Below are positions 14,034-41,272 of a stretch of 64,000 nucleotides of DNA, one piece after another. The stretch covers positions 96,001 through 160,000 of the forward strand of contig OZ257156.1 in assembly GCA_965279375.1 (NCBI GenBank). Reading direction: 5' to 3'. The position numbers and the translations under genes are program-made. The stretch's first letter is position 1, and each line of letters begins with the position of its first letter. The notes beneath the pieces are model-generated. The model was not told the DNA's origin. It searched no databases and was given only the letters and a program-made list of their open reading frames with translations. Source of the stretch: Gemmatimonas sp. GTDB lineage: Bacteria; Gemmatimonadota; Gemmatimonadetes; Gemmatimonadales; Gemmatimonadaceae.

Positions 14034-14059
14034 ACGAGTTCACCGAGTGACTCACCTGG

Positions 14060-26211: not shown

Positions 26212-28485
26212 TTACGCCAAATGCATCCGCTCGAGGAGCGCGATGAACCGCGGCTCCCCGCGCAGCGGATCGTAGAGCGGGCGCACGCCCAGCCACACCA
26301 GGTCGGACGCGCGCGCCTCGCACGCTTCTTCCAACAGCTCGAGTGCGCGCGTGTTCTGACCCAACCCGAGGCGCACCTGCGCGCGATGCGTGGGCGAGAC
26401 GTACTCGGTCAGCGCGCGACGATCCAAACCGCGCGCGATCTCGTCGGCACGCACGACTTCGCCGGCGCGGCCCAGTGCATGTCCCAACAGTGCGACCGTC
26501 TCGCTGCTGCCGTTGGAGTGCGTCACGGCTAGTTCGGCGTGCTCGAGCGCCTGCGCGTCACGCCCCAGCTGCGTCAGCGCCTGCGAGAGGAAGTAGTGCG
26601 CGGGCGCAAAGTTGACATCCAGGTCGAGCACCGTCTGCGCGGCCTCGACGGCGCGGTCGTAGCGGCGCGCGTAGAGCAGCACGCTGCACAGCGTCACGCG
26701 CAGCAACGGCGACAGCGGATCCAGCATCAGCGCCCGCTGCATGGCGCGGATCGCTTCGTCCACACGGCGCGCCGGGATAAGCGTCATGATCGCCAGCCCC
26801 TGATATGCTGCCGGCAGCATCGGGTTGATGCCCAGCGCATGGCGGAACATCGATTCGGCAGCGGCACGATCCCAGTCATGCGCCGCGGATACCGTGGCCA
26901 GTGCCACGCGTGCATCGGCCAGCCCTGCGTCGAGTTGCAACGCATGTTCGGCTGCCGTACGCGCTTCACGCATGGCGTGTGCTGGTGCGGCCTGCCCATA
27001 GATCGCCTGCGTGACCCACGCATCGGCAATCCCGGCGAGCGCGGGCGCGTACGATGGATCGAGTTTCAGCGCATCCTGGAAGCATTCGATCGCGCGCCGC
27101 ATGCCTTCCGCCGTGCGACGATTCCCGAAAAACCGGCCACGCAGAAACGTTTCGTACACCTCGAGACCTGGCGGCGGCGCAGGATCGACCGTGGGCAACG
27201 TGCTCGGCATCAGCGTCGTATGCAGCGCATTCGCCACCGACGCGCCGATCTCCTCCTGAATCGCAAACACGTCCGATACCTGCCGATCGTAGCGATCGGA
27301 CCAGCGCAGGAATCCATCGCGCGCGTTGATCAGCTGCACACTCACCCGCAGTCGGTCCGCGGCGCGGCGCACACTGCCCGTGACGACATTCTGCACGCCG
27401 AGTCGCTGCGCAACGGTACGGACATCGTCCTGCGACGCGCGCATCGCAAAGGACGACTGCCGTGCGCAAACGCGAATCGTGCGCCGCCGCGAGAGCGCGG
27501 TGAGAATCTCTTCGGCGATGCCGTCGGAGAGATACTCGTTGTTGGCGTCGCCGCTCAGGTTCTCGAAGGGCAGCACGGCGAGCGACGGCGTGGCGGCCGT
27601 TTCTCCGACGATGCGAATCGATCCGGTGCTGTGTGCTCCTGATCGCCATGCCGCCGTGAGCGCGTCTTCAAACTCGCCGGCGCTCGCGTAGCGGTCATCG
27701 GGATTGCTGGCGAGCGCACGACCGAGCACGCGATCGATCTCGACGCTGATTTCGGGGCGCACGGCCCTCGCCGACGGCGGCGTGGGAAGGAATCGCTTGG
27801 CGAGCATCTCGCGCGGAGTCGCGCCCGCGAAGATTGGCTCACCCACGAGCATCTCGTACAACACCACCGCGAGGCTGTAGATGTCGCTGCGGCTATCGAT
27901 CGTCGGCTCGCCCAGCGCCTGCTCGGGGCTCATGTACGCGAGCGTACCGACGATCAGCCCGACGCGCGTCTGATCTTCGGTAATCGCGGTGGACGACGAC
28001 ATCGCCTTGGCCACACCGAAATCCGCCACGAGCGCGTGCTTGCCGGAAAGGAGGATGTTGGCCGGCTTGATGTCGCGGTGAATGACGCCGTGCGCGTGCG
28101 CGTAGGCCAACGCGTCGGCGACTTCGATGGCAATCGGCAACGCGTCCGCCACGGACAGGCGCGACTCGCGCGCCAGCCGGTCCTTGAGCGTCTCGCCGTC
28201 CACGAACGGCATGACGTAGTAGGGCATCCCCAGCGCTTCGCCGGAGTCGAGCAACGGCAGAATGTGCGGGTGGGAGAAGCGGGCGGTGACCCCGATCTCG
28301 CGCAGAAAGCGCTCGGCGCCCTGCTCCATCACGGTGTCGTGCATGATCTTGAGCGCGACGTTCCGCTGGTGCTTGAGGTCCACCACCAGATACACCGCGG
28401 CCATGCCGCCCACCGCGATTTCCCGTTCGACGCGGTACCGCGCGGCGAGCGCCTGCCGCAGGGCCTCATCCCGGTTCATGGTCAC
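26212..28485 (-). CDS. Hanks-type Ser/Thr protein kinase with TolB-like and TPR domains
   Basis: VALK, HRDIKPANIL, DFG and YMSPEQ motifs; SLAVLPFENLS domain; TPR-like C-terminus. Confidence 0.93.
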   Translation of the reverse strand: MTMNRDEALRQALAARYRVEREIAVGGMAAVYLVVDLKHQRNVALKIMHDTVMEQGAERFLREIGVTARFSHPHILPLLDSGEALGMPYYVMPFVDGETLKDRLARESRLSVADALPIAIEVADALAYAHAHGVIHRDIKPANILLSGKHALVADFGVAKAMSSSTAITEDQTRVGLIVGTLAYMSPEQALGEPTIDSRSDIYSLAVVLYEMLVGEPIFAGATPREMLAKRFLPTPPSARAVRPEISVEIDRVLGRALASNPDDRYASAGEFEDALTAAWRSGAHSTGSIRIVGETAATPSLAVLPFENLSGDANNEYLSDGIAEEILTALSRRRTIRVCARQSSFAMRASQDDVRTVAQRLGVQNVVTGSVRRAADRLRVSVQLINARDGFLRWSDRYDRQVSDVFAIQEEIGASVANALHTTLMPSTLPTVDPAPPPGLEVYETFLRGRFFGNRRTAEGMRRAIECFQDALKLDPSYAPALAGIADAWVTQAIYGQAAPAHAMREARTAAEHALQLDAGLADARVALATVSAAHDWDRAAAESMFRHALGINPMLPAAYQGLAIMTLIPARRVDEAIRAMQRALMLDPLSPLLRVTLCSVLLYARRYDRAVEAAQTVLDLDVNFAPAHYFLSQALTQLGRDAQALEHAELAVTHSNGSSETVALLGHALGRAGEVVRADEIARGLDRRALTEYVSPTHRAQVRLGLGQNTRALELLEEACEARASDLVWLGVRPLYDPLRGEPRFIALLERMHLA

Positions 28486-28640
28486 GCCAACGCGTGGAGC
28501 GCGCGCACGCGCGATTTGGACGCAGTCTTCACAAGAGAGAAGCTAGCGTCTCCGACTGTCTGCGCACACCTTTGTGGGGCTTGGACCTGTCGCTCCAACG
28601 CCGTGCGGCGGGCTGGCCGCGACCTCTGGAGAACGCTCGT

Positions 28641-31600
28641 ATGCAGTGCTCGAAGTGCGGAACGAAGAACTCGACCATGGCCAGGTTCTGCACCGAGTGC
28701 GGAAACGCCCTCGGAGTCCCCTGTACCGCATGCGGGTTCGGAAACCCACCGGAAGCAAAGCGCTGCGGCGGATGCGGCACCGCGCTGCAGGCGGCCCCCC
28801 GCGCCGAAGCCGAACGGCGGCAGCTGACCGTCTTCTTCGTGGACCTGGTCGGCTCCACGGCGATGTCGGAGGCGTGGGACCCGGAAGAGCTGCGCGAGAT
28901 GTACGCGCGCTACCAGACCATCTGCGCCGACATCATCAAACGATACGACGGACACATCGCGCAGTATCTGGGCGACGGCGTGCTGGCGTACTTCGGCTAT
29001 CCCGTCGCGCACGAGGACGACGCGCTCCGCGCGGTGCGGTCCGGACTCGAGATTCTCGCCAGTCTGAGTGACGTCACCCTCGGCGGCGAACACCCGATGG
29101 CCCGCATCGGCATTCACACCGGGCTCGTGGTCGTCGGCGACGTCGGCGGCGGTCAGAAGCAGGAACAGCTCGCGCTGGGCGAGGCGCCCAACATTGCCGC
29201 GCGCGTGCAAGGCGAGGCCGAGCCCAACACGATGCTCGTCAGCGAAGCCACGCGGCGCCTCGTCGCCGGCCACTTCCTGCTCGGCGATCTGGGCCCGAGA
29301 AACCTGAAGGGCATCTCGCGCCCCATTCAGCTGTGGCGCGTACTCGGCATGAGCGATGCGACGAGTCGGTTCGATGCGATGGCCTCGGCGGCGGGGCTCG
29401 CGCCGTTCGTCGGACGTCAGGTCGAGATGGACGTCATTCGCGAAGCGTGGGGACTCGCGTCGCACGGGGAAGGACAGACGCTGCTGGTCCGCGGCGAAGC
29501 GGGCATCGGCAAGTCGCGGCTGCTGGGTGCGGCACGCAACGTCGCGTCCTTGGGTGCGCACGAACGGTTTGAAGCCGAGTGCTCGCCGTACGACAGCAAC
29601 AGCCCGCTGCATCCCGTCGTGCACATGCTCGAACGCCGGCTTGGCTTCGACGCGCAGATGGCCGACACGGAGAAGCTCGATCGCATCGAGGAGTTCGTCG
29701 TGCAGCGCGGCGGACGCACGGGCGAAGCAGTCCCGCTGCTGGCCTCGCTGCTCTCGGTGAATCTGTCGGGGCGCTTTCCGGCCAGCGATCTGCCGCCGGC
29801 CAAGCAGCGGCAGCGCATGCTGCAGGTGCTCGCGGAGTTGCAGTTGCAGGCGCCCGGAGGTGCTCCCACGCTGGTGGTCATTGAAGACCTGCACTGGGCC
29901 GATCCCTCCACGCTCGAACTCGTGGCCGCGCTGGTGTCGCAGCAATCCAAGTCGCGTCTGATGGTTATCGGATCGACGCGTCCGGAATTGCCCGAGCTGT
30001 GGTCGCCCGCACCCAACCGGCGCGAGCTCAAGGTCGAAGCGCTCGCGCGCACGGACATTCGCGCGTTGGTGGCCGGCGTCGCGGGCCCCAAACCGCTGCC
30101 GGACAGCGTGCTCAAGGAGATCGTCGAGCGCACGGGCGGTATCCCGCTCTTCGTGGAGGCGGTCACGCGCACGGTGCTGGAGTCGGGGGTACTCACGGAG
30201 CTGGAGGATCGCTTCGAACTCTCGGGCCCACTGCCGCCGGGGCTCATCCCGTCCACGGTGCACGACTCGTTGATGGCGCGCATCGATCGACTGGGGCCTG
30301 ACAAAGTCATCGCGCAGGTCGCCTCGGTCATCGGGCGCGAGTTCCGCTCCGACCTGCTGTCGCTCGTGACGGGCCGCAGTGGTGCGTCGCTGGAGGGCGC
30401 GCTGCGCCAGCTCATCGATCTCGACCTCGTGTCGCGTACCGGCATCGCGCCAAACTGGACGTACACGTTTAAACATGCGTTGCTGCAGGACGCCGCGTAC
30501 GGCTCGCTGCTCAAGAAGACGTGCCGCGATTACCACGGAAGGATCGCTGACGCGCTCTCCGAACACTTCAGCGAGCTCGTGGAGACGAATCCGGCGCTGT
30601 TGGCTCGCCATCTCGAGGGCGCGGGTCGCGTGAAGGAAGCGGTGCCCGCGTGGATCAAGGCCGGCACAGATGCGGGGCAGCGTTCGGCCATGCAGGAATG
30701 CGTCGCGTATCTCAAGCGCGCCATCACGTTGCTCGAAACGCTGCCGGTGGATGACCCGGATCGTCTCGCGAACGAAACCGTCGCGCAACTGGCCATCGCC
30801 CCGCCGCTGATGGCCACGGCCGGCTGGGGCGCGCGCGAAGTCGAACGCGCCTGCCTGCGCGCCAAGGAGCTGTGCGAGCAGACGGGGAATGGTGAAGGGC
30901 TGTTCGGCGCGATGTGGGGGCTCTGGACCGTGCTCTTCGTGCGCGGCGAGCACGAACGCGCGCTCGAAGCGGCCAAGACGGTGCTCAGCATGGCGATGGC
31001 CGGCGACGTGGGCATCCTGCACGTTGCCGCACGACATGCGATCGGTTTCTCTCACTACTACCTCGGCGAGTTCGCCGAAGCGCGGATGCACGCCGAGAAG
31101 GCGCTCGAGATCTTCTCGCTCGATCAGGAAAAGCTGCTCGTCAGCGTCTTCCAGATTCCGTCTACGGTCTGCTGCCTTTCGTTCCTCACGCAAAGCTTGC
31201 GCTTCCTCGGCTTCCCCGAGCAGGCGCGTGAGCGGCAGCTGCAGCTCGAACAGCTCGTGCGTGATCTCGACAACCCGGCGTGCACTGCCGTAGGGCTCGG
31301 TGTCGGTCAGTACCACTACTTCGACCGGAACGACATCGACACGATTCGCGCGCAGGCCGACCGCGGCTACACGCTGGCCGTCGAAGAGGGGTTCCTGTTC
31401 TGGTCGGCGGCGATGCGCGTGTATCGCGGCTGGTCGCAGGCGCTCACCGGCGAGAGCGAGCGCGGCATCCGCGAAATGGACGAAGGACTGGAAGACGTCT
31501 TCCGCACCAACTCCGGCATCTTCGTGCCGCAGTGGCGCATGATGATGGCGCAGGGGCGGCGCGTGCAGGGCGATCTCCCCGGTGCGCTCAAGCAGATCAA

Positions 31601-31922
31601 CCTCAGCCTCGAGTTGATCGACACGTTCCGCGAGCGCTACTACCTGAGCGAATCGTTGCGTGAGCGTGCAGCCATCCACGTAGCGATGGGTGACACGACC
31701 AAGGCAGAGGACGATTTGCGTCGCGCCATTGGTGTGGCGCATCAGCAGGATGCACGGTTGCTCGAGCTGCGCAGCGCCGTGGCGCTCTCCAACCTGCTGA
31801 TTGCGCGCGAGCGACCCGCCGAGGTGCGTGACCTGCTCACACCGTTGCTCGGCAGCTTCACCGAAGGCTTCGACGAACCGGATCTCGTGCAGGCCCGCGA
31901 GCTGCTGGCATCGCTGGGGTGA
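28641..31922 (+). CDS. Class III adenylate/guanylate cyclase with double zinc ribbon, STAND AAA ATPase and TPR-like region
   Basis: Four CxxC at the N-terminus; FVDLVGST, YLGDG, RIGIHTG, NIAAR; Walker A GEAGIGKS; EDLHWAD; GGIPLF. Start ATG 28641. Confidence 0.92.
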   Translation: MQCSKCGTKNSTMARFCTECGNALGVPCTACGFGNPPEAKRCGGCGTALQAAPRAEAERRQLTVFFVDLVGSTAMSEAWDPEELREMYARYQTICADIIKRYDGHIAQYLGDGVLAYFGYPVAHEDDALRAVRSGLEILASLSDVTLGGEHPMARIGIHTGLVVVGDVGGGQKQEQLALGEAPNIAARVQGEAEPNTMLVSEATRRLVAGHFLLGDLGPRNLKGISRPIQLWRVLGMSDATSRFDAMASAAGLAPFVGRQVEMDVIREAWGLASHGEGQTLLVRGEAGIGKSRLLGAARNVASLGAHERFEAECSPYDSNSPLHPVVHMLERRLGFDAQMADTEKLDRIEEFVVQRGGRTGEAVPLLASLLSVNLSGRFPASDLPPAKQRQRMLQVLAELQLQAPGGAPTLVVIEDLHWADPSTLELVAALVSQQSKSRLMVIGSTRPELPELWSPAPNRRELKVEALARTDIRALVAGVAGPKPLPDSVLKEIVERTGGIPLFVEAVTRTVLESGVLTELEDRFELSGPLPPGLIPSTVHDSLMARIDRLGPDKVIAQVASVIGREFRSDLLSLVTGRSGASLEGALRQLIDLDLVSRTGIAPNWTYTFKHALLQDAAYGSLLKKTCRDYHGRIADALSEHFSELVETNPALLARHLEGAGRVKEAVPAWIKAGTDAGQRSAMQECVAYLKRAITLLETLPVDDPDRLANETVAQLAIAPPLMATAGWGAREVERACLRAKELCEQTGNGEGLFGAMWGLWTVLFVRGEHERALEAAKTVLSMAMAGDVGILHVAARHAIGFSHYYLGEFAEARMHAEKALEIFSLDQEKLLVSVFQIPSTVCCLSFLTQSLRFLGFPEQARERQLQLEQLVRDLDNPACTAVGLGVGQYHYFDRNDIDTIRAQADRGYTLAVEEGFLFWSAAMRVYRGWSQALTGESERGIREMDEGLEDVFRTNSGIFVPQWRMMMAQGRRVQGDLPGALKQINLSLELIDTFRERYYLSESLRERAAIHVAMGDTTKAEDDLRRAIGVAHQQDARLLELRSAVALSNLLIARERPAEVRDLLTPLLGSFTEGFDEPDLVQARELLASLG

Positions 31923-33178
31923 CCGAGCGGGCAGATATCGTCGTCTTTGGCGCCACTGGCGCAAGCGGACGACAGATCGCGCGATATCTGTTCGAGCAGC
32001 AGCGGCGGTCGGCCACGGCCCCAGTCACCATAGCCGTCGCCGGCCGCGACGCTGTACGGTTGGCCGCGCTGCAGCGCGAGCTTGGCGCTACGGTGCAACT
32101 GATGCACGCCGACGCCGGCGACGACGCGAGCATCGACGCGATGGTCTCTCGCGCGCGCGTAGTCGTAGCGGCGGCGTCACCGTACATCACGAACGGCGAA
32201 TCGACGCTGGCCGCGTGCGCGCGCCAGGGCGTGGACTACGTGGACATCTGCGGCGAGCCCGCACATGTGCGGCGCATGATCGACCGCCATCACGGCGCAG
32301 CGCAGGCATCCGGTGCGAAGCTGGTGCCCATGTGCGGCTTCGATTCCGTGCCGTCGGATCTCGGTGTGCAACTGCTCGTCGAGCACTTCGCCGAGCGGGG
32401 CACGACCGTGCGTGACATTCGCGCGTTGTATCGGTGCGACGGCAGCTACAACAACGGCACGATCGAGTCGGCACGCGAACTGTGGAAGCGCCCGGGCGAT
32501 GTCGAGTTGATGCGCGATCCGTTCCTGCTGAACGCTGATTCAGCGACTGCTCGCGACGGAACGCGGCACGCCGACCCGCAGGTCGCCGAGCTCGATGCGG
32601 ACGTGCAACGATGGGTGGCGCCGTTCTGGATGGGGCCGATCAACACGCGCGTCGTGCGCCGCAGTGCGTCACTCGCGACGCTGCGCGGAGATCCATACGG
32701 CGCAGACTTCGGCTATCAGGAGTACTGGGACCCGGGCGGTACGTTCAACGCTGCAACGGCAATGAGCGCCGCATGGGGCTGGAGTGCGTGGCACGCCATG
32801 TCGCGCGTGCCGGGTGTGGCGAATGCGCTGTCCACCACGCTGAGCCCAGCGATGGCCGCGGCCGCATCGATGATGCATCGCAACAGCGGATGGCGTGCGC
32901 TGTTCATCGGCACGGGCGCCAATGGCTCACGCGCCTGGGCCAAGCTCTCCGGAGAGGGCGATCCCGCCAACGCGGCGACGGCGATGATGGCTGGTGAATC
33001 GGCGTTGGCGTTGGCGCTCGATCGCGTATCGCTCCCAGGTGGCGATGCACGTGCCGGCGTGCTCACGCCCGCCGACGCGCTCGGCGGCGTGCTGCGCGCA
33101 CGACTCCAGCGCGCGGGGATGCGCGTGGAGTGTCCGTCGCAACCGTCGTGGACGCGCCTCGCGCGGATGGACGACTAG
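31919..33178 (+). CDS. Saccharopine dehydrogenase-like NADP-binding protein (trans-acting enoyl reductase family)
   Basis: VVFGATGASG, AGRD, YVDICGE and CGFDSVPSDLG motifs; GTGA overlap with the cyclase. Confidence 0.88.
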   Translation: MTERADIVVFGATGASGRQIARYLFEQQRRSATAPVTIAVAGRDAVRLAALQRELGATVQLMHADAGDDASIDAMVSRARVVVAAASPYITNGESTLAACARQGVDYVDICGEPAHVRRMIDRHHGAAQASGAKLVPMCGFDSVPSDLGVQLLVEHFAERGTTVRDIRALYRCDGSYNNGTIESARELWKRPGDVELMRDPFLLNADSATARDGTRHADPQVAELDADVQRWVAPFWMGPINTRVVRRSASLATLRGDPYGADFGYQEYWDPGGTFNAATAMSAAWGWSAWHAMSRVPGVANALSTTLSPAMAAAASMMHRNSGWRALFIGTGANGSRAWAKLSGEGDPANAATAMMAGESALALALDRVSLPGGDARAGVLTPADALGGVLRARLQRAGMRVECPSQPSWTRLARMDD

Positions 33179-33209: not shown

Positions 33210-36200
33210 CTAGCCTATGGCTAGATCGCCTCGTGAGGCAAGGCTCGAAATCGGCTTGTCGCTCTCGGACGGCGGCGGCGCATCGGCGCCAACGTACCAG
33301 GACTCGTCCCACGACTGCGCCATCGGGAAGATGCGATCGGACTCGGTGCCCGTCGCGCCGCGCCAGATGGCGTAGTCAGGCTTCTGCGCCGTGCGGGCCA
33401 ACTCGTTGAACAGCGCTTCCCGCTGCATCCCCGCGCGGTCACGCGCCAGCCGCACGAGATCCTTCATGATGTCCAGTCGCGCCAGCATGTCATGTCGGAC
33501 GCGCTGCATGAGCATGTCGAGCGACTGCGAGTCAAGCAGCGAATCAGCGTCCGTGGTCGCGGTAGATCCTTTGGTTGAACGCAGCGCGTCCGACGACGTC
33601 CCTTCATCCGCTGCCGTCGTCGGCGCACTCCGCAGCTGTTCCTCCGAGCGTTGCAGCAGCGACACACGCTGCTCAAGCGTCGCACGCGTGGTGCGATCGA
33701 TGTCGGCTCGGGCCTTGAGTTCGGCTTCGGTCTCAGCGTCGGCGTGGCGGTGTTCCGACGCGTCCGGCATCAAGCCGAGCACCCCTTCGAGCGCCGCGTA
33801 CTCGTCGTGCACCATCTTGAGCAATCGCACGCGCGCGTCGCTGGCGTGCACAGAGGACGGGTGATAGTCCGCTGGTTTGTTGGGCGCATCCGCCACACCA
33901 AGCACCTGCTGACTGCCGATCGCCGCCACCGTCTCCAGAAACGCGAGACGCGCGTGCGCCAGTTCGGCCACAGAGATCGGCTTGGCGCCCGGTGCGAGCT
34001 GCGTGACGGGGTGCGAATTGTGCACCAGATCGGCGAGCGCCTCCCAGCACTTTTCCATCTCGGACCATTTCTGCGTAAAGTCGCGCGCGCTGGCGACCAT
34101 GGAGGACGCCTTGCGCATTCGCGGCTCGCCCGGTCGACGCCCAATCTCCTCGACGATGCTGTCGAAGAACTCGTTCTCGATCGTCGCCACACTTGGCTTG
34201 GCCACGCCAGCGAGCCGCGCTTCGAGACGCGCTTCCAGTCGTCGCCGCTCCTGACGCCACCGTGCGTTCTCGCTCCAGTTGCCCCACTCACGCGAAAGCA
34301 CCGACTCCAGCACGGACTGTGGATCGAGCGCTGTCAGCGCCTTCGATGCCTCGATTGGCTCCCGCTGTTCAGACGCGGCGGCGGCATCGCCGAGATCAGA
34401 CGGCAAGACGAGATACTGCGCGCTCAACGGCTCGCTCGCGAACGCCCCTTCCTGCGCCGCACGGCTCAGGCGGCGCGCGTCGCCCTGATCGAGCATCTCC
34501 ACGGCGCTGTCGCCCACGCGACGTGCAGTCGAGACATCGTTCAGGTAAGTCGGACGCGATTCGCCGGTCGTACGCCAACCGTACTCGCCCGCGCGATAGC
34601 CGAAGTTCTCACCAAGCGATTCGTCGAGCGTCACCGACATCCAGAACGGACGTTGCGGCTGCAGGCCGTACACGATGCCTGGCTCGCTGGTCGTGAGCTT
34701 GCGCGCCACAAGGCCGAGCATCTGCACGATGGGCTGCGTGGGATACTCGTGAATGCGCACCGTCAGCGGCTGCTCGATCTCGCGCAGGTCGAACACTTCG
34801 CTCAGCGTACGCTTCACGCGAACGAGCGACTGATAGCACGCACGCTCCGGGCTCGCGACATCGCGATACTGCTTCATCGTGTAGTACGAAATCGGCATGC
34901 CGTTGCCGAGCAATTCGAGCGCGAGCCGCCGCCCTTCGTCGAGCATACCATGCGAGTCGTCGCTGATGTCGGTGTCGGTCGGCGCGACGTCCGGCTTGAT
35001 GCGCCCGCGCAGCGCCTGCTTCCGGCGCAGCTCCGTCTTGAGGAGGTTTCCCCACGTATCCGCGATCGCGCGCCATTCGAGTTCATCGCTCAACTCCACG
35101 GCGCGCCCCTCCTCGATCTCGAGCAACGTGCGGCGCACCGCCTTCTCGCCACGCCCCAACACTGGAATCACTTCTGCTTCCAGCTTGAGCAGCGGCTGCG
35201 TGCTCTCTTCAGCGGGTCCATCGTGCGACATCCAGAGATTGTCGGGCACATGGAACTGCGCGTTGGTGGTGGGAATGCCCAACACCTCCGTGTTCGCTGC
35301 GGTGGCGGTGGGATTGTCCACGAACGTGAACGCCGGCACCACCCCAACCCCCTTGAGCACCCACCGTCCAGCCACCTGCTCCTCGCGGCGCACAGGAATC
35401 AGAAACGAGAGCTCGTACTCCGCCCAGTCGCCGATGTTGTCGTTGGTGGACGTGACGTCACCGAAGTTCGTTGCGGTGAGATAGACGTGCGCGAAATCGC
35501 CTGCCGTGGATGGGCTCCAGAGACTCAGCCGCGCGCCGTTGCGCTCTGCAGCACCATCCGCAAGCGCCTCGTTGAACGTGCTGTCGAGGAACTGCTGCAG
35601 CTTGGCGCGCTCGGCCAGCAGCGGCATCACGCGCACCGTGGTATCGGCGAAGTGGAACGCGCCCGCGATGGTACGGTTTGCCGCGCCGAGCGAGGTGTTG
35701 AACAGCTTGGCGACCTTGGGAGTCTGGTCCACCGTCAGCGGATACGTACGCCCGCTGTTGTCCACCCATTCGCCGCTGTGCGAGCGCCACGCGATGTTCT
35801 CACCCGGCTCGTACACCATGTCCACGTTGTACCAGAGCGGCATCACCGGCTTGAGCACGGCGATGTCGCACCCCGTTCCCGCCCACTGCTTCTCCACTTC
35901 GAGACCGAGCGTCTGTACGATGGGGAGCGAGGGCCAGCGATGCATCACCACCGAGTAGCCGCCCGACAGATCGCCAGCCATCAGCCGCTCCTCGCCGAGC
36001 AGGCCGCCGCCGTTGAAGCCGGTGAAGCGCATCGGGCCGTTGGTTAACGCCTGGTAGCAGTACTCGTCCGGATTTTCCGCGCGGCGGAACTGCTTCAGGT
36101 TCATCGTATTCGCGTAGAGGTTCGGCTTGGGCGGGAAGGCCATGGTGGCCATCTTGTTCATCATCGCGAGGTAGTTGTCCGCGCTCGCCCCCGGGTGTGT

Positions 36201-36908
36201 TGGCAGCACACCCAGCCCCGCCATGATGCCGACCACGTCACGCGACATGCCAGCGACCGCGTTGGCCATCTTCGCGGCCACGTTCCACGGCGCAAACGGT
36301 TGGCTCGCATCGAACGGCAGCCGCAGATGCGAGATGGGCGCCTCGCGCTCGACTTCCAGCAGCGTCTGCATTTCCAACCGCTTAGCCGAGTAGAGCTCGG
36401 AGAACACGGCCGTCTTGATGCGCGCTTCGGTGACGGGCGCCTGGGCATTGCGCACCCAATCGCTGTCTGCCGCTTCGAGGGAGGCGGTCGTCTTGGGCCA
36501 GCCGTACACCGTGCGGCCGGTGGTCATCGAGATGTCGTCGTCCACGTAGATGTACGGCGAGAACGATGCCCAGTCCTTGAAGACGTACTTGCCATTCACC
36601 AGCTGATACCACTCGAGCGGCACGTTGAAGAGAATCTCGCGCTGCGCCAGCCAGCCGTAGTTGCCGATCTCGATCGACATGCGGCCGTAGTCCAGAATCA
36701 TCAGCTGGACGTACGGCGCCGGCACACGAAACCATCCGAGCTCTTTCGGAATGATGTTCAGGTAGCTGTCCACGAGGCGCTGCAGTGAGCCGAGACTCGC
36801 ACGCAGGGGAAACATGCGCGCCGACATCCCCTCGAATGGGAAGGGTGGCTTGACCGGCAGGGACGCACCCGGCAGGTCCGCAAACTTCGGCATCTCGGTC
36901 CACGACAT
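33210..36908 (-). CDS. Large protein with two acetoacetate-decarboxylase-like domains and a helical C-terminal region
   Basis: Domain 1: YIYVDD..TTGRTVYGWPK and KQFRRA..CYQAL. Domain 2: FTFVDN..AANTEVLGIPT and KQYRDV..CYQSL. These paired motifs indicate internal duplication. Confidence 0.65.
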   Translation of the reverse strand: MSWTEMPKFADLPGASLPVKPPFPFEGMSARMFPLRASLGSLQRLVDSYLNIIPKELGWFRVPAPYVQLMILDYGRMSIEIGNYGWLAQREILFNVPLEWYQLVNGKYVFKDWASFSPYIYVDDDISMTTGRTVYGWPKTTASLEAADSDWVRNAQAPVTEARIKTAVFSELYSAKRLEMQTLLEVEREAPISHLRLPFDASQPFAPWNVAAKMANAVAGMSRDVVGIMAGLGVLPTHPGASADNYLAMMNKMATMAFPPKPNLYANTMNLKQFRRAENPDEYCYQALTNGPMRFTGFNGGGLLGEERLMAGDLSGGYSVVMHRWPSLPIVQTLGLEVEKQWAGTGCDIAVLKPVMPLWYNVDMVYEPGENIAWRSHSGEWVDNSGRTYPLTVDQTPKVAKLFNTSLGAANRTIAGAFHFADTTVRVMPLLAERAKLQQFLDSTFNEALADGAAERNGARLSLWSPSTAGDFAHVYLTATNFGDVTSTNDNIGDWAEYELSFLIPVRREEQVAGRWVLKGVGVVPAFTFVDNPTATAANTEVLGIPTTNAQFHVPDNLWMSHDGPAEESTQPLLKLEAEVIPVLGRGEKAVRRTLLEIEEGRAVELSDELEWRAIADTWGNLLKTELRRKQALRGRIKPDVAPTDTDISDDSHGMLDEGRRLALELLGNGMPISYYTMKQYRDVASPERACYQSLVRVKRTLSEVFDLREIEQPLTVRIHEYPTQPIVQMLGLVARKLTTSEPGIVYGLQPQRPFWMSVTLDESLGENFGYRAGEYGWRTTGESRPTYLNDVSTARRVGDSAVEMLDQGDARRLSRAAQEGAFASEPLSAQYLVLPSDLGDAAAASEQREPIEASKALTALDPQSVLESVLSREWGNWSENARWRQERRRLEARLEARLAGVAKPSVATIENEFFDSIVEEIGRRPGEPRMRKASSMVASARDFTQKWSEMEKCWEALADLVHNSHPVTQLAPGAKPISVAELAHARLAFLETVAAIGSQQVLGVADAPNKPADYHPSSVHASDARVRLLKMVHDEYAALEGVLGLMPDASEHRHADAETEAELKARADIDRTTRATLEQRVSLLQRSEEQLRSAPTTAADEGTSSDALRSTKGSTATTDADSLLDSQSLDMLMQRVRHDMLARLDIMKDLVRLARDRAGMQREALFNELARTAQKPDYAIWRGATGTESDRIFPMAQSWDESWYVGADAPPPSESDKPISSLASRGDLAIG

Positions 36909-36935
36909 GATCGGCGCGTCCTCGGTTCGTACTGG

Positions 36936-37982
36936 TCAGGAGCGAGTGAGAACCCAACGAGGCAACGCTTCGATGAAGCGCTTGTCCCGCGAGTCCGGAA
37001 GCTGTCCATACGTCTGCTCAAACTCGGCGTACGCTGCACCGGCGAGTCCGTGCGCCACCTGACGCGCGTACTCGATGCATTCGTACGCCTCCATGCGCTC
37101 GAACACCCACGCCACATCCGCGGCGCTGCGCACGTCGCGCGGCTGCCCCAGGAATGCGGCCAGTCGCGCGCGCTCATCACCGGTGCCCTGCTCCATCAGG
37201 CGGATCAGCATCAGCGTTCGCTTGCCTTCGCGGATATCACCACCCAACTCCTTCCCGTAGGACTCCGCATCGCCCACGAGATTCAGCAGGTCGTCCTGGA
37301 TCTGAAACGCGGCTCCGACAAAGAAGCCAAAGCGAATGAACGGCTCGACGTCCACCATGCCCGCCGAACCGATCAGCGCACCAACGCGACTCGGATGAAT
37401 CGTCGCCAACCAGCACGTCTTCTTGAGCACCATCTCGAGATAGTCGCGCTCGGTCACGTCGATCGCGTTGTCGCGACGCCAGCCAAGTTCCAGCGCCTGC
37501 CCCTCGGCGGACTCACGCGCCATACGCTCGGTTTCTTCGACGAGACGCAACGCGAGGTTCTGACCGAGCACGTGCTGGTTGTCGAGCAGCGGTCGCATCG
37601 CCAGCATCGAGAGCATGTCGCCCGCGTTGATTGACAGCGGAACGCCCTGCATCATGTGCATCGTCGGTCGGCCGCGTCGTTCCTCGCTCTCATCCTGAAT
37701 GTCATCGTGGATGAGCATCGCGTTGTGCAACAGCTCGATGGAGACCGCGGTGCGCAACGCGAGATCGGCATTGCCGCCGAATGCGCGCGCCGTGGCAATG
37801 CACAGGCTCGGACGAAAGCCACGCCCGCCGCGCTGCGGATAGTCCACAAGCAAATCGTACAGGTAGCGACGCGGTTCCATGTCCGGCAGATACTGAAAGA
37901 GCACACGACGGGTCGCGTCCCCGTACTCCTGCAGTACCGCAGGCACGAGCTCCTGCTCCGCCCGCGTCGCCGTGGCAATCAC
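36936..37982 (-). CDS. Polyprenyl synthetase (trans-isoprenyl diphosphate synthase, GGPPS-like)
   Basis: ELLHNAMLIHDDIQD..RRGRPT, GQALE, KT, FQIQDDLLN and GKELGGDIREGKRT motifs. Start taken as GTG 37982, since the ORF-track extension overlaps the upstream gene. Confidence 0.92.
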   Translation of the reverse strand: MIATATRAEQELVPAVLQEYGDATRRVLFQYLPDMEPRRYLYDLLVDYPQRGGRGFRPSLCIATARAFGGNADLALRTAVSIELLHNAMLIHDDIQDESEERRGRPTMHMMQGVPLSINAGDMLSMLAMRPLLDNQHVLGQNLALRLVEETERMARESAEGQALELGWRRDNAIDVTERDYLEMVLKKTCWLATIHPSRVGALIGSAGMVDVEPFIRFGFFVGAAFQIQDDLLNLVGDAESYGKELGGDIREGKRTLMLIRLMEQGTGDERARLAAFLGQPRDVRSAADVAWVFERMEAYECIEYARQVAHGLAGAAYAEFEQTYGQLPDSRDKRFIEALPRWVLTRS

Positions 37983-37987
37983 GCGCG

Positions 37988-38779
37988 CTACCCGCCGATC
38001 GGCGCAAGCTGCACGGTGATCTCGCCGCGTCGATTGCCGCCGCCGTCGAGTACTGGCCCCGCGTACGTGCCGGCAGGCTGCGTATCGGGCACCGTGACGC
38101 GTACCGTGAGGTGGCCGTTCACGCTCTCCAACGTGACGTCGGTCAGCGAGGGACCCGTCGTCCCCTTCGCCTCGGCGAGCGGCTCCACCTTGAGCAGCAT
38201 GAACTCGGCATCCGGATCGAGCGACACCGAGACTGTGGCCGGCAAGCGCGAGCTGACCTGCACGCTGTGTCGTGCCGAGTTCGTACGCATCGGCGCGCCA
38301 CCCATGCCTGCCATGAACTGATTCATCGCGGCGGCACCACCCGGCACGAACGCCGACATCGAGTCGGTCCACATCTTCGCCATTTGCATCCACGGCGCCA
38401 TCATGGGCCCCATCATCGGCGCCATCGAGCCCCACATGCCCCACGGGTTCGCGCCCTGCCGGTTGTCGCTCATATACGGGTTTCCCACTGATGGTGACTG
38501 ATAGCGCTGCGCCGCATCTCGGCCGCGCGCGATGTACTCGTCGATGACTACGTAGGCCGTGTGCACGCCCCGCTCCACCGCGCCCATCAGCGGCTCCGTC
38601 GCGGCCTCCACCACACGCTGCGCCGTCTTCATGCCGTCCGTGACGATGTGTTCAACGCGATGCGCCATGTCCTGCATCGGAGGCACGACGCCGGCGAAAT
38701 TGCGCTGCCGCACCGGACCTTCTCGCTCCGGTGCGTCGCGACGCATACGCTTGCCGTCCTTCTTCTTGCCTTCGCTCAT
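37988..38779 (-). CDS. Hypothetical protein (Met-rich middle, beta-rich C-terminal domain)
   Basis: Fills the operon gap with 3- and 5-bp spacers; protein-like composition; no recognisable family. Confidence 0.75.
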   Translation of the reverse strand: MSEGKKKDGKRMRRDAPEREGPVRQRNFAGVVPPMQDMAHRVEHIVTDGMKTAQRVVEAATEPLMGAVERGVHTAYVVIDEYIARGRDAAQRYQSPSVGNPYMSDNRQGANPWGMWGSMAPMMGPMMAPWMQMAKMWTDSMSAFVPGGAAAMNQFMAGMGGAPMRTNSARHSVQVSSRLPATVSVSLDPDAEFMLLKVEPLAEAKGTTGPSLTDVTLESVNGHLTVRVTVPDTQPAGTYAGPVLDGGGNRRGEITVQLAPIGG

Positions 38780-38782
38780 TCG

Positions 38783-40984
38783 TCAGGGATGGTCGTAGCC
38801 GATGATGTCTGCCAATCGCGGGAGCTTCGAGAGCGCGTGCGCCGCCAGCTTGCCGGAGATGACCGCCGATTCGATGCACCCGGTATCGAGACCAGTCTGC
38901 GTCCAATCGCCCGCGATCGTGAGGTTGTCAAATGAGCGGTCGAGAGGCGAGAGACGATACTGCGACGTGCCGGGCAGCGATAGGACGTAGCGGTCTGTGG
39001 GATTCACGTTGGCGCGAATGTACTGCGTATCGATCGCGTCCGACGTAACGGCCTCGCTCGAGGCCGCCGCTGGGCCAGGCGACGCCGTGCCCGCTTCGGT
39101 GTCCACCAGCAGTTCCCATCGAAAGCCCCCAACGGCGCGCTGCGACTTGGGCCAGAGCGCGCCGATGTCCCGGTCGAGGAACTGCTGGGCGTTCGCTCGC
39201 ACCACCGCATTCTGACGCGACTGCAACCCGGAGTCAGGTAGCCCACCGGCTTCGTCGGGCAACACGCTGCAGAAGTAGGCCACGGATCGCACGTCGGCGT
39301 GCCCCTCCTCGGGGATGAGGTGCGACATGTCCGCCCACGTGTCGAACGGCTCCACGAAGCCGGAGATGTTCACTCCGGGATGCTGCCAACCCAGTGTTGT
39401 CACATCCTCCGCCACCCAGAGCTGCAACGCCTGTGTCTGCACCGTCTTCACCTGCTCGACCATCGTCTTCCAGCGCGGCGAGCTCGCGATCAACTCGCTG
39501 GCCACATGCGGCAGCGCCGCGATGCTGACGCCCACGACGACATAGTCGAAGTCGTCCACCACCTGGAGCGTGCGCGTCCCATCGCGTCGCGCTTCCCAGT
39601 GGCTTTCGAACGCGCGCCCCTCCGCCTGCAACTTCTTTCCCGACACCAGCTGCGAGTAGTCCGGCGCGACCGGCCAGCACGGGACCTGATTGACCGTCAC
39701 CAGCGGCTGATACTCGCCGCCGCCTTTCACGCGCGCCTGCACGTCGAACTCGAGCCGCTCCACGTACGGCGTCTCACCCCGCTCCGCCGGCGCCAACCCG
39801 ATGTTGGTGAGGCGGTGGAAGAACTCGAACTTGGCCCCGCGCGCCTTGAGCACCTGATAGAGCGGCGAGAAGACGACGTCTCCCATGCCGGCATTCATGC
39901 GCCAGAACAACGAGCCGCGATAGGTGAAGAACATGCGCATCGCGCCACGCAGCGCGACGCCTGCGGCGAGTCGCGGGCGCTCGACGTCGCCATCTTCGTA
40001 GGCGAAGGCGAGATCGTAGATGCCGCGCATGAACCCCGAATCCAGCGACTGCTCCGACGCCCCGTGCTTGCGCAGCCAATCGCGCCAGTCGTGGTCGTTG
40101 ATCGCATCGAAGCCGCGCGGATCGAGCGCGAGGCCGTGCATCGTCGACCCACGAATGATCGCGATGATCAGGTCGGCCACCTGCCACAACCGTCGCACCT
40201 CGGTGTCGCCGCTCGACAGACGCGTCAAATGCGAGCACGTGGCCGTCGAGAGCGCGTCCAGCAGCTGCAACAACATCGTCGCGCCCTCCCGCATACGCCC
40301 GGGCAGCCACGCATCCATCGCCTGTCTCAGCGCATCCGTCGCTTCGAACAGCGCCGTGGCCGTCGCCAACTCGCCGTAGCGAATGACCCGCGAGATGAGA
40401 TCGGCGATCGACTGACTCGTCGAGCCTTCAGCCGCCCCTGCCGGAGTCTCCGCGTTGGAATTCGCGTTGGCGTTGGCATCCGCTGCGTGCGCCGAACGAA
40501 TCAGCTCAGCAACCAGCATCGCGGATTGCCGCAGATACGACGCGACGGTGAGCGGATTGCCCGCGTCCGGTGGATCACCCGGCAGTCCGCGGCCAGGCGG
40601 GAAGTGCGCCATCCACGTCTCCCACGCGCCGTCGCTGCCGGCCACGCGATCCGTCACGGCCACCAGCGGCGCAGGTGAAAACGCCTCGTCAAATCGCGCC
40701 AAGCGGCAGGTGGCCGGATCGGCGTTTCGCTCGGCGTACGCCTGCCGCATCATGCCGAAGGCGTTCTCGTAGAAGCCCATCCACAGGTGCAGGCCGTGCT
40801 CTTCAATGCGACCGCTCGCCGTGCGTCCCGAGGCACCCTTGCCACCCAGCCGCCACCCCTGCTGGTAGATCGTCACCTCGAACCGCCCGCCGTGCTCCGG
40901 TCTCGTGAGTTCGAACGCCGCAGTCATCGACGCGCAGCCGCCGCCGAGGATCGCTACGCGGATCGGTGTCACACGCTCAGTCAT
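38783..40984 (-). CDS. FAD/NAD(P)-binding oxidoreductase, carotenoid desaturase/HpnE/amine oxidase superfamily
   Basis: VAILGGGCASMTAA, LGGKGAS, EEHGLHLWMGFYENAF and C-terminal AGDWT..GCIESAVISG. Start ATG 40984. Confidence 0.85.
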   Translation of the reverse strand: MTERVTPIRVAILGGGCASMTAAFELTRPEHGGRFEVTIYQQGWRLGGKGASGRTASGRIEEHGLHLWMGFYENAFGMMRQAYAERNADPATCRLARFDEAFSPAPLVAVTDRVAGSDGAWETWMAHFPPGRGLPGDPPDAGNPLTVASYLRQSAMLVAELIRSAHAADANANANSNAETPAGAAEGSTSQSIADLISRVIRYGELATATALFEATDALRQAMDAWLPGRMREGATMLLQLLDALSTATCSHLTRLSSGDTEVRRLWQVADLIIAIIRGSTMHGLALDPRGFDAINDHDWRDWLRKHGASEQSLDSGFMRGIYDLAFAYEDGDVERPRLAAGVALRGAMRMFFTYRGSLFWRMNAGMGDVVFSPLYQVLKARGAKFEFFHRLTNIGLAPAERGETPYVERLEFDVQARVKGGGEYQPLVTVNQVPCWPVAPDYSQLVSGKKLQAEGRAFESHWEARRDGTRTLQVVDDFDYVVVGVSIAALPHVASELIASSPRWKTMVEQVKTVQTQALQLWVAEDVTTLGWQHPGVNISGFVEPFDTWADMSHLIPEEGHADVRSVAYFCSVLPDEAGGLPDSGLQSRQNAVVRANAQQFLDRDIGALWPKSQRAVGGFRWELLVDTEAGTASPGPAAASSEAVTSDAIDTQYIRANVNPTDRYVLSLPGTSQYRLSPLDRSFDNLTIAGDWTQTGLDTGCIESAVISGKLAAHALSKLPRLADIIGYDHP

Positions 40985-41213
40985 TCGGGTGCGACGGTAG
41001 TCGCAGACGGCGTCGGCACCCGAGCGAGCAAGGGCGTACCGCACAACAGTGCAGGCACCACGTGAACGCGGTGCCCTGGCAGAGATGAATGCATGCGGCA
41101 ATCTGTGACGGCGGTACCGTATCGTCGAGTGCCAATTGCCGAGCTTGCAGACCGGAGTCGAAACGCCTACGGCTGAGTCTGCCGTATTCCCCAGATCGGT
41201 CGGGCCAAACGCA

Positions 41214-41243
41214 AATCGGGGCGCCATTGCTGGCGCCCCGATT
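41214..41243 (-). terminator. Rho-independent terminator after the PQQ dehydrogenase
   Basis: On the minus strand: AATCGGGGCGCCA-GCAA-TGGCGCCCCGATT (13-bp stem, GNRA loop) followed by TGCGTTT. Confidence 0.75.
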
Positions 41244-41272
41244 GTCTGTGCGATCACGCCGACCCTGCGCTG

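Follow-up and report, generated by a model that had tools for sequence, protein, structure and literature searches.

The locus examined here raises the question of what a flavoenzyme, a Met-rich protein, a polyprenyl diphosphate synthase and a tandem protein of the acetoacetate decarboxylase (ADC) fold accomplish together. A first-pass annotation of the window, by which we mean the whole 64,000-nucleotide stretch of Gemmatimonas sp. DNA that was analyzed, had proposed that these genes encode a new isoprenoid pathway. We asked how far the operon, its neighbors and its relatives in other genomes are consistent with such a role.

Layout and conservation of the operon

All four genes lie on the minus strand: the flavoenzyme gene at 38783..40984 (733 aa, with its ATG at 40984), the Met-rich protein gene at 37988..38779 (263 aa), the synthase gene at 36936..37982 (348 aa) and the tandem ADC-fold gene at 33210..36908 (1232 aa). 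The coordinates leave gaps of 3 bp (38780-38782), 5 bp (37983-37987) and 27 bp (36909-36935), in agreement with the earlier description of co-oriented, closely packed genes. Coding on the minus strand was backed by a third-position GC of 0.81-0.84 for three of the four frames; the synthase frame is missing from this listing because the mechanical open reading frame begins further upstream. A GC-rich hairpin at 41214..41243 on the minus strand, 3' of a PQQ-dependent dehydrogenase gene, is a likely terminator judging from its sequence and folding, and probably marks the upstream limit of the operon. The fold of 41200-41255 has an energy of -33.4 kcal/mol (z -5.68), which was equaled by none of 200 shuffles. 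The hairpin was not called in a consensus terminator scan because its T-run falls short of the rule used by that scan. It had been described as insulating the cluster from an upstream PQQ operon; the hairpin stood, but in place of a PQQ operon there is one gene (41273-43597) that encodes a PQQ-dependent dehydrogenase (PF01011, 517 bits).

The arrangement of the four genes is far beyond chance. All four were complete and in the order of the window in 39 of 64 related loci, and the three enzymes (flavoenzyme, synthase and ADC-fold protein) co-occurred in 51 of the 64 by tblastn. This synteny extends across at least seven phyla according to the labels on the metagenome-assembled genomes, on which the phylum assignments depend (Gemmatimonadota, Acidobacteriota, Actinomycetota, Pseudomonadota, Myxococcota, Nitrospirota and Latescibacterota), so the gene-neighborhood check bore out the proposed cluster. 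The synthase shows the highest conservation among these proteins, with 58-77% identity between orthologues, compared to 49-70% across phyla for the flavoenzyme. The spread of the locus is patchy, with 3 of 301 genomes sampled in its own phylum and 2 of 251 in one acidobacterial class carrying it. The concern that the cluster could match a characterized pathway found no support, as literature searches returned no description of the four-gene cluster.

The four encoded proteins

The flavoenzyme is an FAD enzyme of the phytoene desaturase (PDS)/amine oxidase fold. Its AF2 model (pLDDT 81.7, pTM 0.86) was closest to the solved structure of rice PDS, which is of the plant and cyanobacterial type (5mog_A; Z 27.8, rmsd 2.9 A, 451 of 467 residues aligned), and Foldseek returned an E value of 7.6e-16 and a TM score of 0.72 on the target. 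The second-best structural family reached Z 23.3, so that PDS leads the L-amino-acid oxidases by about 4.5 Z; L-amino-acid oxidase, L-lysine oxidase, nicotine oxidoreductase and monoamine oxidase all matched the model at Z 20-23. The earlier comparison with PDS and HpnE thus holds for the fold but not for family membership. Pfam matched NAD_binding_8 and, for Amino_oxidase, its C-terminal end only, and the best NCBIfam matches all fell below their cut-offs: HpnE (TIGR03467) scored 60.9 bits against 283 over two short stretches only, zeta-carotene desaturase 41 against 622 and PDS (TIGR02731) 27.7 against 569. The FAD Rossmann fold and the C-terminal closing motif are common to PDS and the flavoenzyme, whereas sequence identity is only 12-16% and the flavoenzyme has about 270 additional residues, including an insertion (147-282, about 140 residues) that the model folds into four helices. 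It also differs from PDS in its C-terminal GYDHP, which was invariant in 29 of 29 sequences, and in a predicted docking partner.

This partner is the Met-rich protein, which is also Trp-rich. It combines a basic N-terminal peptide (R..KR..P.R.GP.R) and a helix, both conserved, with a Met-rich linker of low complexity and a beta domain at the C terminus. No Pfam, NCBIfam or PADLOC family matched it. A tblastn match was present in 44 of the 64 loci, and divergent proteins of the same design occupy the gap between the flavoenzyme and synthase genes in six loci (L034, L045, L051, L059, L060 and L063); the counterpart in the same gap of L047 looks frame-shifted. Seven residues (R14, P22, R24, V72, Y76, G86 and A90) were invariant in alignment A4. 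Complex prediction with the flavoenzyme gave ipSAE values of 0.74, 0.74 and 0.69, compared to 0.01 for the best control; the mark applied had been attained by 116 of 157 solved complexes as well as by 2 of 215 mismatched pairs, counts that hold only roughly here because our own alignments served as input. The runs had at least 23% of contacts in common, with a partner pLDDT of at least 51, and placed residues 9-25 and 27 of the Met-rich protein against the invariant GYDHP end. The models suggest that the Met-rich protein is an accessory subunit docked onto the flavoenzyme by its conserved N-terminal peptide.

The first-pass annotation correctly placed a trans-prenyltransferase in the cluster. 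The product of 36936..37982 is an all-trans prenyl diphosphate synthase (PF00348, 194 bits) whose two Asp-rich motifs, DD[IV][EQ]D and DD[LIV]LN, were intact in 53 of 53 orthologues and preceded in each by HNA[ML]L[IV]H. It is most like geranylgeranyl diphosphate (GGPP) synthases, with the Thermus thermophilus enzyme 1wmw as its best solved relative (196 bits), and it shares PF00348 and both motifs with that enzyme and with archaeal IdsA, but it scored below every NCBIfam equivalog cut-off (IdsA 215 against 468, GGPP_syn 183 against 500). We take the residue five positions before the first Asp-rich motif to be related to chain length; this is Ala in the operon synthase and Trp in the Thermus enzyme, and the chain length of the product therefore cannot be read from it. 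The genome carries three polyprenyl_synt genes, of which the operon synthase is the third, extra one.

The reading of the largest protein as a tandem ADC fold was upheld by its structural model. Pfam ADC covers only residues 52-148, within barrel 1 (37.4 bits, cut-off 29.8), no NCBIfam ADC model matched, and all named homologues are labeled hypothetical protein, in a family of 482 representatives at E <= 1e-30. The AF2 model of residues 1-790 (pLDDT 86.1, pTM 0.87) contains two barrels, at about residues 1-400 and 415-780, and matched ADC structures at up to Z 20.5 (3c8w_B; rmsd 3.6, 241 aligned, model 321..778), compared to Z 4.1 for the next unrelated fold. The halves also match each other (BLASTP E 3e-22), which indicates an internal duplication. 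The same fold occurs at Z 17-20.5 in ADC (3BH2, 3BGT, 3C8W), MppR (4JM3) and the aldolase-dehydratase of Streptomyces bingchenggensis (4ZBO, 4ZBT, 6EEJ), but each of those enzymes has one barrel of about 250 residues, whereas the operon protein fuses two barrels of about 390 residues to a tail of about 450. This tail is variable and helical, with a conserved QKPD..R....SWD..WY.G motif at its end.

Within the GRTVYGWPK motif of barrel 1, Lys139 (codon 36492..36494, minus strand) is a candidate Schiff-base lysine from its place in the alignment. It was invariant in 18 of 18, 71 of 71 and 31 of 31 aligned homologues. Its G-x-P-K aligns with GFPKK of 4zbo, 4zbt and 6eej, Lys139 falling on the first K, which is presumably the Schiff-base residue of those enzymes; the matches are weak (E 0.55 and 0.034). 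The second K of that pair is Thr in the operon protein, and barrel 2 reads GIPTT at the equivalent place, so the lysine is kept in barrel 1 only.

Flanking genes and fusions of the core pair

The four genes form one operon inside a larger conserved locus. A reductase gene of the saccharopine dehydrogenase/NmrA type (31919..33178, plus strand; 419 aa, NAD(P)-binding, PF03435 and NmrA) converges on the ADC-fold gene, and its product is likely the fifth enzyme of the locus. Reductases of this type, or of an Epimerase/HpnA-like type, adjoin the cluster in 33 of the 64 loci. The short-chain dehydrogenases (SDRs) of related loci are closest to HpnA, SdmB and OleD, all of them lipid enzymes, at scores under their cut-offs; for the L003 reductase the best family was HpnA, with 131 bits against 368. 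Beyond the reductase gene lies that of a STAND-type signaling protein (28494..31922, plus strand; 1142 aa) with Pfam matches to a double zinc ribbon, a class III nucleotidyl cyclase, an AAA_16 ATPase and TPR repeats. Its orthologues follow the ADC-fold gene downstream in 42 of the 64 loci; within 3 kb, 22 are convergent with it and 13 share its strand. The conserved STAND gene and the adjoining reductase speak against the earlier view of a self-contained pathway. A Ser/Thr protein kinase with TPR repeats in Pfam (26212..28485, minus strand; 757 aa) follows, with relatives in 22 of the 64 loci. The STAND protein aligns over positions 281-1267 of TIGR03903, the TOMM system kinase/cyclase, with the same order of cyclase, AAA_16 and TPR, but it scored under the cut-off (524.6 bits against 705.75), has a double zinc ribbon in place of the kinase domain and lies in a neighborhood with no TOMM genes near the cluster.

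The flavoenzyme and the ADC-fold protein also occur fused in one polypeptide, in the orders ADC-FAD, FAD-ADC, FAD-ADC-FAD, FAD-FAD-ADC and DUF2071-FAD-DUF2071. These fusions are independent of one another, and all 10 ADC domains that are fused to the flavoenzyme family retained the Lys139 equivalent. Among 14 myxobacterial loci, a STAND gene stands beside such a fusion in five and the fusion stands alone in two, and none of these seven had a prenyl synthase match. The invariant core is thus the pair of flavoenzyme and ADC-fold protein, not the synthase; the pair therefore can do without an isoprenoid supply of its own, and its substrate may be of another kind. The five two-gene units (L080, L089, L090, L092 and L093) consist of a Pkinase- or cyclase-AAA_16-TPR gene and an ADC-FAD fusion gene, with a kinase-AAA_16-TPR gene directly before the fusion gene in L089, L090, L092 and L093. 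The flavoenzyme is also fused to cyclase-AAA_16-TPR (P0148), and its relatives form FAD-TPR-S-Trypsin_2 fusions (P0150 and P0152), an architecture typical of conflict systems rather than biosynthesis.

Proposed mechanism and its alternatives

We considered that the known ADC-fold enzymes, to judge from their structure titles, act on small 2-oxo and 3-oxo acids and not on lipids. Together with the amine and amino-acid oxidases that resemble the flavoenzyme and the existence of the core pair without a synthase, this could mean that the pair works on a small nitrogenous compound or keto acid, with the flavoenzyme as an amine or amino-acid oxidase whose product, an imine or 2-oxo acid, is captured by the ADC-fold lysine for decarboxylation or aldol chemistry, the synthase being a later add-on that, for example, prenylates the product. 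We regard this as distinctly unlikely, given that PDS is clearly the first structural match, that the synthase is present in 51 of the 64 loci as the best-conserved member, that Pfam annotation revealed no prenyltransferase for a non-isoprenoid acceptor in the locus and that the companion SDR is closest to lipid-acting families. The flavoenzyme could also be a divergent HpnE or desaturase whose substrate (squalene, hydroxysqualene or phytoene) comes from synthases encoded elsewhere, with the other genes as accessories; this would fit the best NCBIfam and fold matches, the HpnA-like SDR beside related clusters and the two SQS_PSY genes found in this genome and in each of three other host genomes tested. 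However, those of this genome lie megabases away, at 2.33 and 4.59 Mb, which agrees with the first-pass statement that the locus itself has no phytoene or squalene synthase; HpnC and HpnD do not adjoin the flavoenzyme, and a squalene-hopene cyclase C-domain was not found in the 99.95%-complete genome (the control was positive in 2 of 14 genomes). Only the Rossmann and C-terminal ends align to the known families. To our knowledge, the conserved ADC-fold, Met-rich and STAND partners are foreign to crt and hpn clusters, and we consider this route very improbable.

The signaling genes suggest a further explanation, in which a kinase- or cyclase-AAA_16-TPR protein senses a trigger and activates the core pair to make a toxic or signaling molecule or to destroy an essential lipid, with the synthase supplying substrate, as part of a conflict, cell-death or developmental effector system under STAND control. 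The two-gene units in 5 of the 14 myxobacterial loci, the effector position of the flavoenzyme in P0148, P0150 and P0152, and a patchy distribution with high cross-phylum identity, as in mobile accessory systems, are consistent with this explanation, which we nevertheless hold to be doubtful. PADLOC has no model for any of the four operon proteins, and its kinase and cyclase matches are to generic domains. Pfam annotation of the window's neighbors gave no sign of phage or mobile-element genes beside the cluster, and large proteins of the kinase/cyclase-ATPase-TPR type are also found with ordinary secondary-metabolite clusters; here the TOMM kinase/cyclase is the nearest model. Term look-ups in three articles on STAND conflict and immune systems (PMC7159879, PMC8195603, PMC13581612) returned nothing on FAD enzymes, prenyl synthases or ADC folds.

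The reading that we favor, at about even odds in our judgment, is a signal-gated enzyme system, hitherto undescribed, that acts on an isoprenoid-derived lipid. The isoprenoid link rests on the intact synthase motifs, the extra third synthase, the PDS match and the SDR resemblances; the coupling of flavoenzyme and ADC-fold protein on their fusion in several orders and the retained lysine; and the signaling link on the frequency of the STAND gene and on P0148. Counting against a lipid pathway are the seven fusion loci without a synthase, the oxidase matches, the small substrates of known ADC-fold enzymes, the TPR-S/trypsin-like fusions and the lack at the locus of a phytoene or squalene synthase to make the long hydrocarbon of PDS-type substrates, while the E values of the lysine alignment count against the chemistry suggested for Lys139. 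In the favored lipid system, the synthase would supply a prenyl diphosphate of roughly C15-C25, and the flavoenzyme, kept on a membrane or lipid surface by its Met/Trp-rich partner, would, like PDS or HpnE, oxidize or reduce a long lipophilic chain. Barrel 1 could then form a Schiff base with a carbonyl intermediate via Lys139 and decarboxylate, condense or dehydrate it in the manner of ADC, MppR or the Streptomyces enzyme, whereas barrel 2, which has no lysine, may bind the lipid or a partner. The reductase would complete the product, and the STAND cyclase or kinase would gate the system. The ADC-fold protein would thus be the tailoring enzyme, as had been suggested, and a prenyl lipid may be the product. 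In the literature searched, no described pathway matches the operon.

Layout, spread, and extent of the locus

The operon consists of four genes on the minus strand, encoding a flavoenzyme (38783-40984, 733 aa), a Met-rich protein (37988-38779, 263 aa), a prenyl synthase (36936-37982, 348 aa), and a large protein with a tandem acetoacetate decarboxylase (ADC) fold (33210-36908, 1232 aa). The frames are separated by 3, 5, and 27 bp, confirming the tight packing reported in the first-pass annotation, and a third-position GC of 0.81-0.84 indicates that three of the four are coding. The hairpin noted at 41214-41243 was also recovered: although a consensus terminator scan did not list it, direct folding of 41200-41255 revealed it, at -33.4 kcal/mol (z -5.68), a value equalled by none of 200 shuffles. 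It follows the gene upstream of the operon (41273-43597), and because this gene encodes a propeller-fold, PQQ-dependent dehydrogenase (PF01011, 517 bits) and not PQQ biosynthesis, the earlier label of "PQQ operon" was dropped. Adjoining the dehydrogenase gene is a minus-strand ORF (43477-45462) with a HupE/UreJ-type membrane domain and a cbb3-type cytochrome c domain, the start of which is uncertain because about 120 bp are shared with the dehydrogenase ORF. Farther upstream, ORFs 46799-48109 (-) and 47318-49372 (+) overlap by about 800 bp on opposite strands and both give Pfam matches (cytochrome c and L-PSP on one strand, DAO on the other), so at least one of their starts must be wrong.

When one genome per species was scanned with a pattern, 64 loci were found to encode relatives of the large protein; their record titles name seven phyla (Gemmatimonadota, Acidobacteriota, Actinomycetota, Pseudomonadota, Myxococcota, Nitrospirota, and Latescibacterota). 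By tblastn, the flavoenzyme, synthase, and ADC-fold protein occur together in 51 of these and the Met-rich protein in 44; six loci hold a divergent protein of Met-rich design in the corresponding gap (L034, L045, L051, L059, L060, and L063), and in L047 the gap appears frame-shifted. All genes are complete, on a single strand, and in the window's order in 39/64 loci. The order is also kept in six loci in which the contig ends within the last gene (L017, L019, L033, L035, L055, and L060), five clusters are rearranged (L002, L010, L026, L058, and L059), and the other 13 loci are paralogues in different settings or sit on contigs that are short or cut. This synteny rules out chance adjacency of the four genes. 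The system was present in 3 of 301 genomes of its own phylum, 2 of 14 of its own genus, and 2 of 251 of an acidobacterial class, and identity across groups is 58-77% for the synthase and 49-70% for the flavoenzyme; given this high identity and patchy spread, the sequences suggest that the system may have moved by horizontal transfer. Two metagenome-assembled genomes (MAGs) labelled Actinomycetota (L043 and L007) carry the cluster with broken flavoenzyme frames, and in L043 the synthase and ADC-fold frames are broken too; these could be either assembly errors or decaying copies.

All-against-all clustering and Pfam analysis of the flanking ORFs showed that the conserved locus is larger than the four genes that had been described as a self-contained pathway. 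A STAND protein, a signalling ATPase with double-zinc-ribbon, cyclase, AAA_16, and TPR domains (28494-31922), has a counterpart in 42/64 loci; an NAD(P) reductase (31919-33178) is matched by a reductase in 33, and a Ser/Thr kinase (26212-28485) has a counterpart in 22. The window's reductase gave no match by sequence in the PDB, and in others of these loci the reductase is an HpnA/SdmB/OleD-like SDR that scores under the family cut-offs. The STAND protein scored 524.6 bits against TIGR03903 (cut-off, 705.75), over model positions 281-1267 only; this model, which we take to describe TOMM system kinase/cyclases, includes a kinase domain, whereas the STAND protein has no Pkinase match. In paralogue loci without the flavoenzyme and synthase (L042, L052, and L062), the ADC-fold gene still has the reductase as a neighbor, together with either a cyclase or an AAA_16 protein. 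Upstream of the flavoenzyme gene, 19/64 loci encode a roughly 200-aa pentapeptide-repeat protein (for example, L014:4322-4948, a Bryobacteraceae MAG).

The four proteins

The likeness of the flavoenzyme to the phytoene desaturase (PDS)/HpnE superfamily held at the level of fold and failed at the level of family. An AF2 model (pLDDT, 81.7; pTM, 0.86) was closest to rice phytoene desaturase (5mog_A; Z 27.8, rmsd 2.9 Å, 451/467 residues), which ranked first of 1000 chains by about 4.5 Z over the next family, the L-amino-acid oxidases (Z 22-23); Foldseek was also run. The overall FAD-binding and substrate-domain fold is thus shared with PDS, but the protein scored 27.7 bits against the PDS-type model TIGR02731 (cut-off, 569.4) and 60.9 bits, in two short stretches, against HpnE TIGR03467 (curated cut-off, 283.05), and a six-frame genome search with the HpnE model gave just 32.6 and 27.9 bits at this gene. 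Pfam matched only the Rossmann end and the final 50 residues. Residues 147-282 are predicted to form four long inserted helices, and the C-terminal GYDHP is unchanged in 29/29 orthologues. HpnE is the hydroxysqualene dehydroxylase of the HpnCDE route. An HpnE enzyme would be expected in genomic association with HpnC/HpnD and squalene-hopene cyclase, and the flavoenzyme shows no such association: the HpnC/HpnD-type SQS_PSY genes map to 2.33 and 4.59 Mb, compared with 0.096-0.160 Mb for the window, in agreement with the earlier statement that the locus lacks a phytoene/squalene synthase, and a search of the 99.95%-complete genome gave no match to SQHop_cyclase_C (the control matched in 2 of 14 genomes).

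The synthase is a trans-prenyl diphosphate synthase, of which the genome encodes three. It matched PF00348 at 194.3 bits (cut-off, 27), and its Asp-rich motifs, DDIQD and DDLLN, are both intact in 53/53 orthologues. Its closest solved relative is a Thermus GGPP synthase (1wmw, 196 bits). Chain length in prenyl synthases follows a residue rule. A score over the cut-off of a GGPP synthase equivalog would make product length assignable, but the operon synthase falls below every NCBIfam equivalog cut-off (NF041003, 183.5 versus 500; NF040698 IdsA, 214.8 versus 468). Assignment as an encapsulin cargo prenyl transferase (NF041169) was rejected at 173 bits versus 450. No class I terpene synthase or cyclase was present in the Pfam matches of the 18 window ORFs scanned between 14060 and 49372; a PF19086 search of the genome gave no match, with its control likewise unmatched in any genome.

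Pfam recognized the large protein through PF06314 (37.4 bits; cut-off, 29.8) in barrel 1 only, the first of its two ADC-fold halves, over profile positions 38-118 of 238, and NCBIfam returned no family at E ≤ 0.01, including the PRK02265 subfamily of acetoacetate decarboxylases. An AF2 model of the first 790 residues (pLDDT, 86.1; pTM, 0.87) matched ADC, MppR, and a Streptomyces aldolase-dehydratase at Z 17-20.5, compared with Z 4.1 for the next fold (Foldseek was also run), and the ADC beta-cone fold was recovered on barrel 2 with 3c8w_B (Z 20.5, rmsd 3.6, 241/249 residues). HMM searches and structure prediction bore out the proposed prenyl synthase, ADC fold, and PDS-like fold. The two barrels are related to each other (BLASTP E 3e-22). 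Lys139, in the GRTVYGWPK of barrel 1, is conserved in 71/71 homologues, and barrel 2 has GIPTT, without a lysine, at this position. Other invariant residues are E91, R132, and those of two KQFR...CYQ motifs. Matches of ADC-fold profiles to PDB sequences were confined to the short lysine motif, where Lys139 aligned weakly (E 0.034-0.55) with the first K of GFPKK in 4zbo and 6eej, the second K being replaced by Thr; we take the first K of GxPKK to be the catalytic lysine of the solved ADC and aldolase-dehydratase enzymes. The C-terminal 443 residues had no usable match in the ESM Atlas.

Other ADC-family genes were seen in different surroundings. L042 (a Solibacter MAG) encodes a small single-barrel protein of 264 aa that keeps the lysine (13798-14592). 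Its gene adjoins those of a tandem ADC-fold paralogue and a TonB-dependent receptor, along with an SDR of the Epimerase type and a reductase of the saccharopine-dehydrogenase type. In two Thermoanaerobaculia MAGs (L046:5403-15667 and L056:2769-10577), a tandem paralogue without a flavoenzyme or synthase adjoins multihaem cytochromes and a beta-eliminating lyase; L046 additionally encodes a porin of the MtrB/PioB type as well as an ECF sigma factor. In L064, a tandem paralogue is closely followed on its downstream side by a reverse transcriptase gene (RVT_1; 11933-13300).

The Met-rich protein had no family match in Pfam, NCBIfam, or PADLOC, and only unnamed "hypothetical protein" clusters in the ESM Atlas. 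Its predicted complex with the flavoenzyme scored ipSAE 0.74, 0.74, and 0.69, compared with 0.01 for the best control (alignments A3 and A4), with at least 23% of contacts in common between runs and a partner pLDDT of at least 51. The ipSAE mark is attained by 116 of 157 solved complexes and 2 of 215 mismatched pairs, counts that are only rough here because our own alignments were used. Confident predicted contacts join residues 9-25, a conserved R..KR..P.R.GP.R peptide, and residue 27 to flavoenzyme residues 679-689, 716-724, and 730-733 (GYDHP), among others. These predictions support a putative binding of the Met-rich protein to the flavoenzyme; no solved complex of this type is known to us.

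Fusions and the core pair

Relatives of the flavoenzyme at E ≤ 1e-30 numbered more than 6000 among 8000 candidates scored, and the ADC-fold family comprised 482 representatives at the same threshold among 1.84 billion; both sets carry generic names only and are mostly metagenome derived. A search for longer flavoenzyme relatives returned 39 proteins of at least 1284 aa, and domain orders were read by Pfam on 13. Besides FAD-FAD proteins (FAD denoting the flavoenzyme domain), these included ADC-FAD (P0145), FAD-ADC-FAD (P0142), FAD-FAD-ADC (P0128), DUF2071-FAD-DUF2071 (P0158 and P0159), FAD-cyclase-AAA_16-TPR (P0148), AAA_16 with FAD (P0149), and FAD-TPR-S-Trypsin_2 (P0150 and P0152) fusions. 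In a myxobacterial class, P0158 was matched in 54 of 201 genomes, and 14 such regions were fetched. Five of these place a kinase- or cyclase-AAA_16-TPR STAND gene directly before an ADC-FAD or FAD-ADC fusion (L080, L089, L090, L092, and L093), two have the fusion alone (L082 and L084), and five are synthase-containing clusters with other gene orders (L081, L083, L085, L086, and L087). L088 has a lone flavoenzyme, and L091 has the STAND gene, its flavoenzyme ORF not being called under our ORF filter. The motif lysine is retained in 10/10 fused ADC domains. From the fusions, the myxobacterial loci, and the kept lysine, we therefore conclude that the flavoenzyme/ADC-fold pair is the core of the system and that the synthase is a frequent addition.

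Two further neighbors were noted in these regions. In two myxobacterial genomes, the kinase-STAND locus has as its neighbor a gene for a full-length RelA/SpoT (p)ppGpp synthetase/hydrolase: in L090 (5500-7950), where it comes directly after the ADC-FAD fusion gene, and in L091 (10431-12650). In L084, the FAD-ADC fusion gene has a cytochrome P450 gene (17042-18424) immediately upstream.

Possible function and novelty

The families, folds, motifs, synteny, and fusions of the system are matters of observation, and the explanation that they best support, which we regard as evenly poised between right and wrong, is that the locus encodes signal-gated enzymes that act on a lipid derived from isoprenoids. 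The steps of such a pathway would follow a putative order in which a lipid would serve as the substrate, Schiff-base chemistry would take place at Lys139, the Met/Trp-rich segment may anchor at the membrane, and the STAND protein would gate the enzymes. A conflict or cell-death effector system is a less probable alternative, and a rather unlikely one. PADLOC-DB 2.0 returned no family for any operon protein, and the neighbors gave PycC-cyclase and kinase matches of a generic kind only. We consider a small-molecule amine or keto-acid pathway improbable. A divergent carotenoid or hopanoid step is the weakest of the three and very improbable, because every family cut-off was missed and no hopene cyclase was found in the genome.

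We found no description of the cluster in the literature searched, which covered few subscription journals. Queries for ADC combined with polyprenyl or terpenoid gene clusters, and for Sbi00515, TPR-S/STAND/amine-oxidase, and DUF2071, gave nothing relevant, and term look-ups in three papers on NTP-dependent conflict systems (PMC7159879, PMC8195603, and PMC13581612) turned up nothing relevant on FAD enzymes, prenyl synthases, or ADC. No characterized pathway in the literature searched matches the cluster, and its proteins are only generically named in the sources.

We tentatively propose, as a possible if doubtful reading, that the flavoenzyme/ADC pair could be the catalytic effector of a new STAND-gated class. 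Activated by a kinase- or cyclase-bearing STAND ATPase, the pair would convert an isoprenoid lipid into a signal or toxin, or destroy an essential one, and the four-gene form would be fed by its private prenyl synthase. The predicted peptide-docking subunit offers a concrete handle for biochemistry, and the repeated fusion to STAND kinases or cyclases ties a metabolic enzyme pair, in a way that can be tested, to immunity-type signal-gated ATPases. If a prenyl-derived lipid is made, this would be the first role of the ADC fold in isoprenoid chemistry and a new route of tailoring that does without a terpene synthase. If the STAND-gated effector proposal is true, the system would represent a new role for the ADC fold in prenyl-lipid chemistry and a branch of bacterial immunity, or of developmental signalling, that works through lipids.
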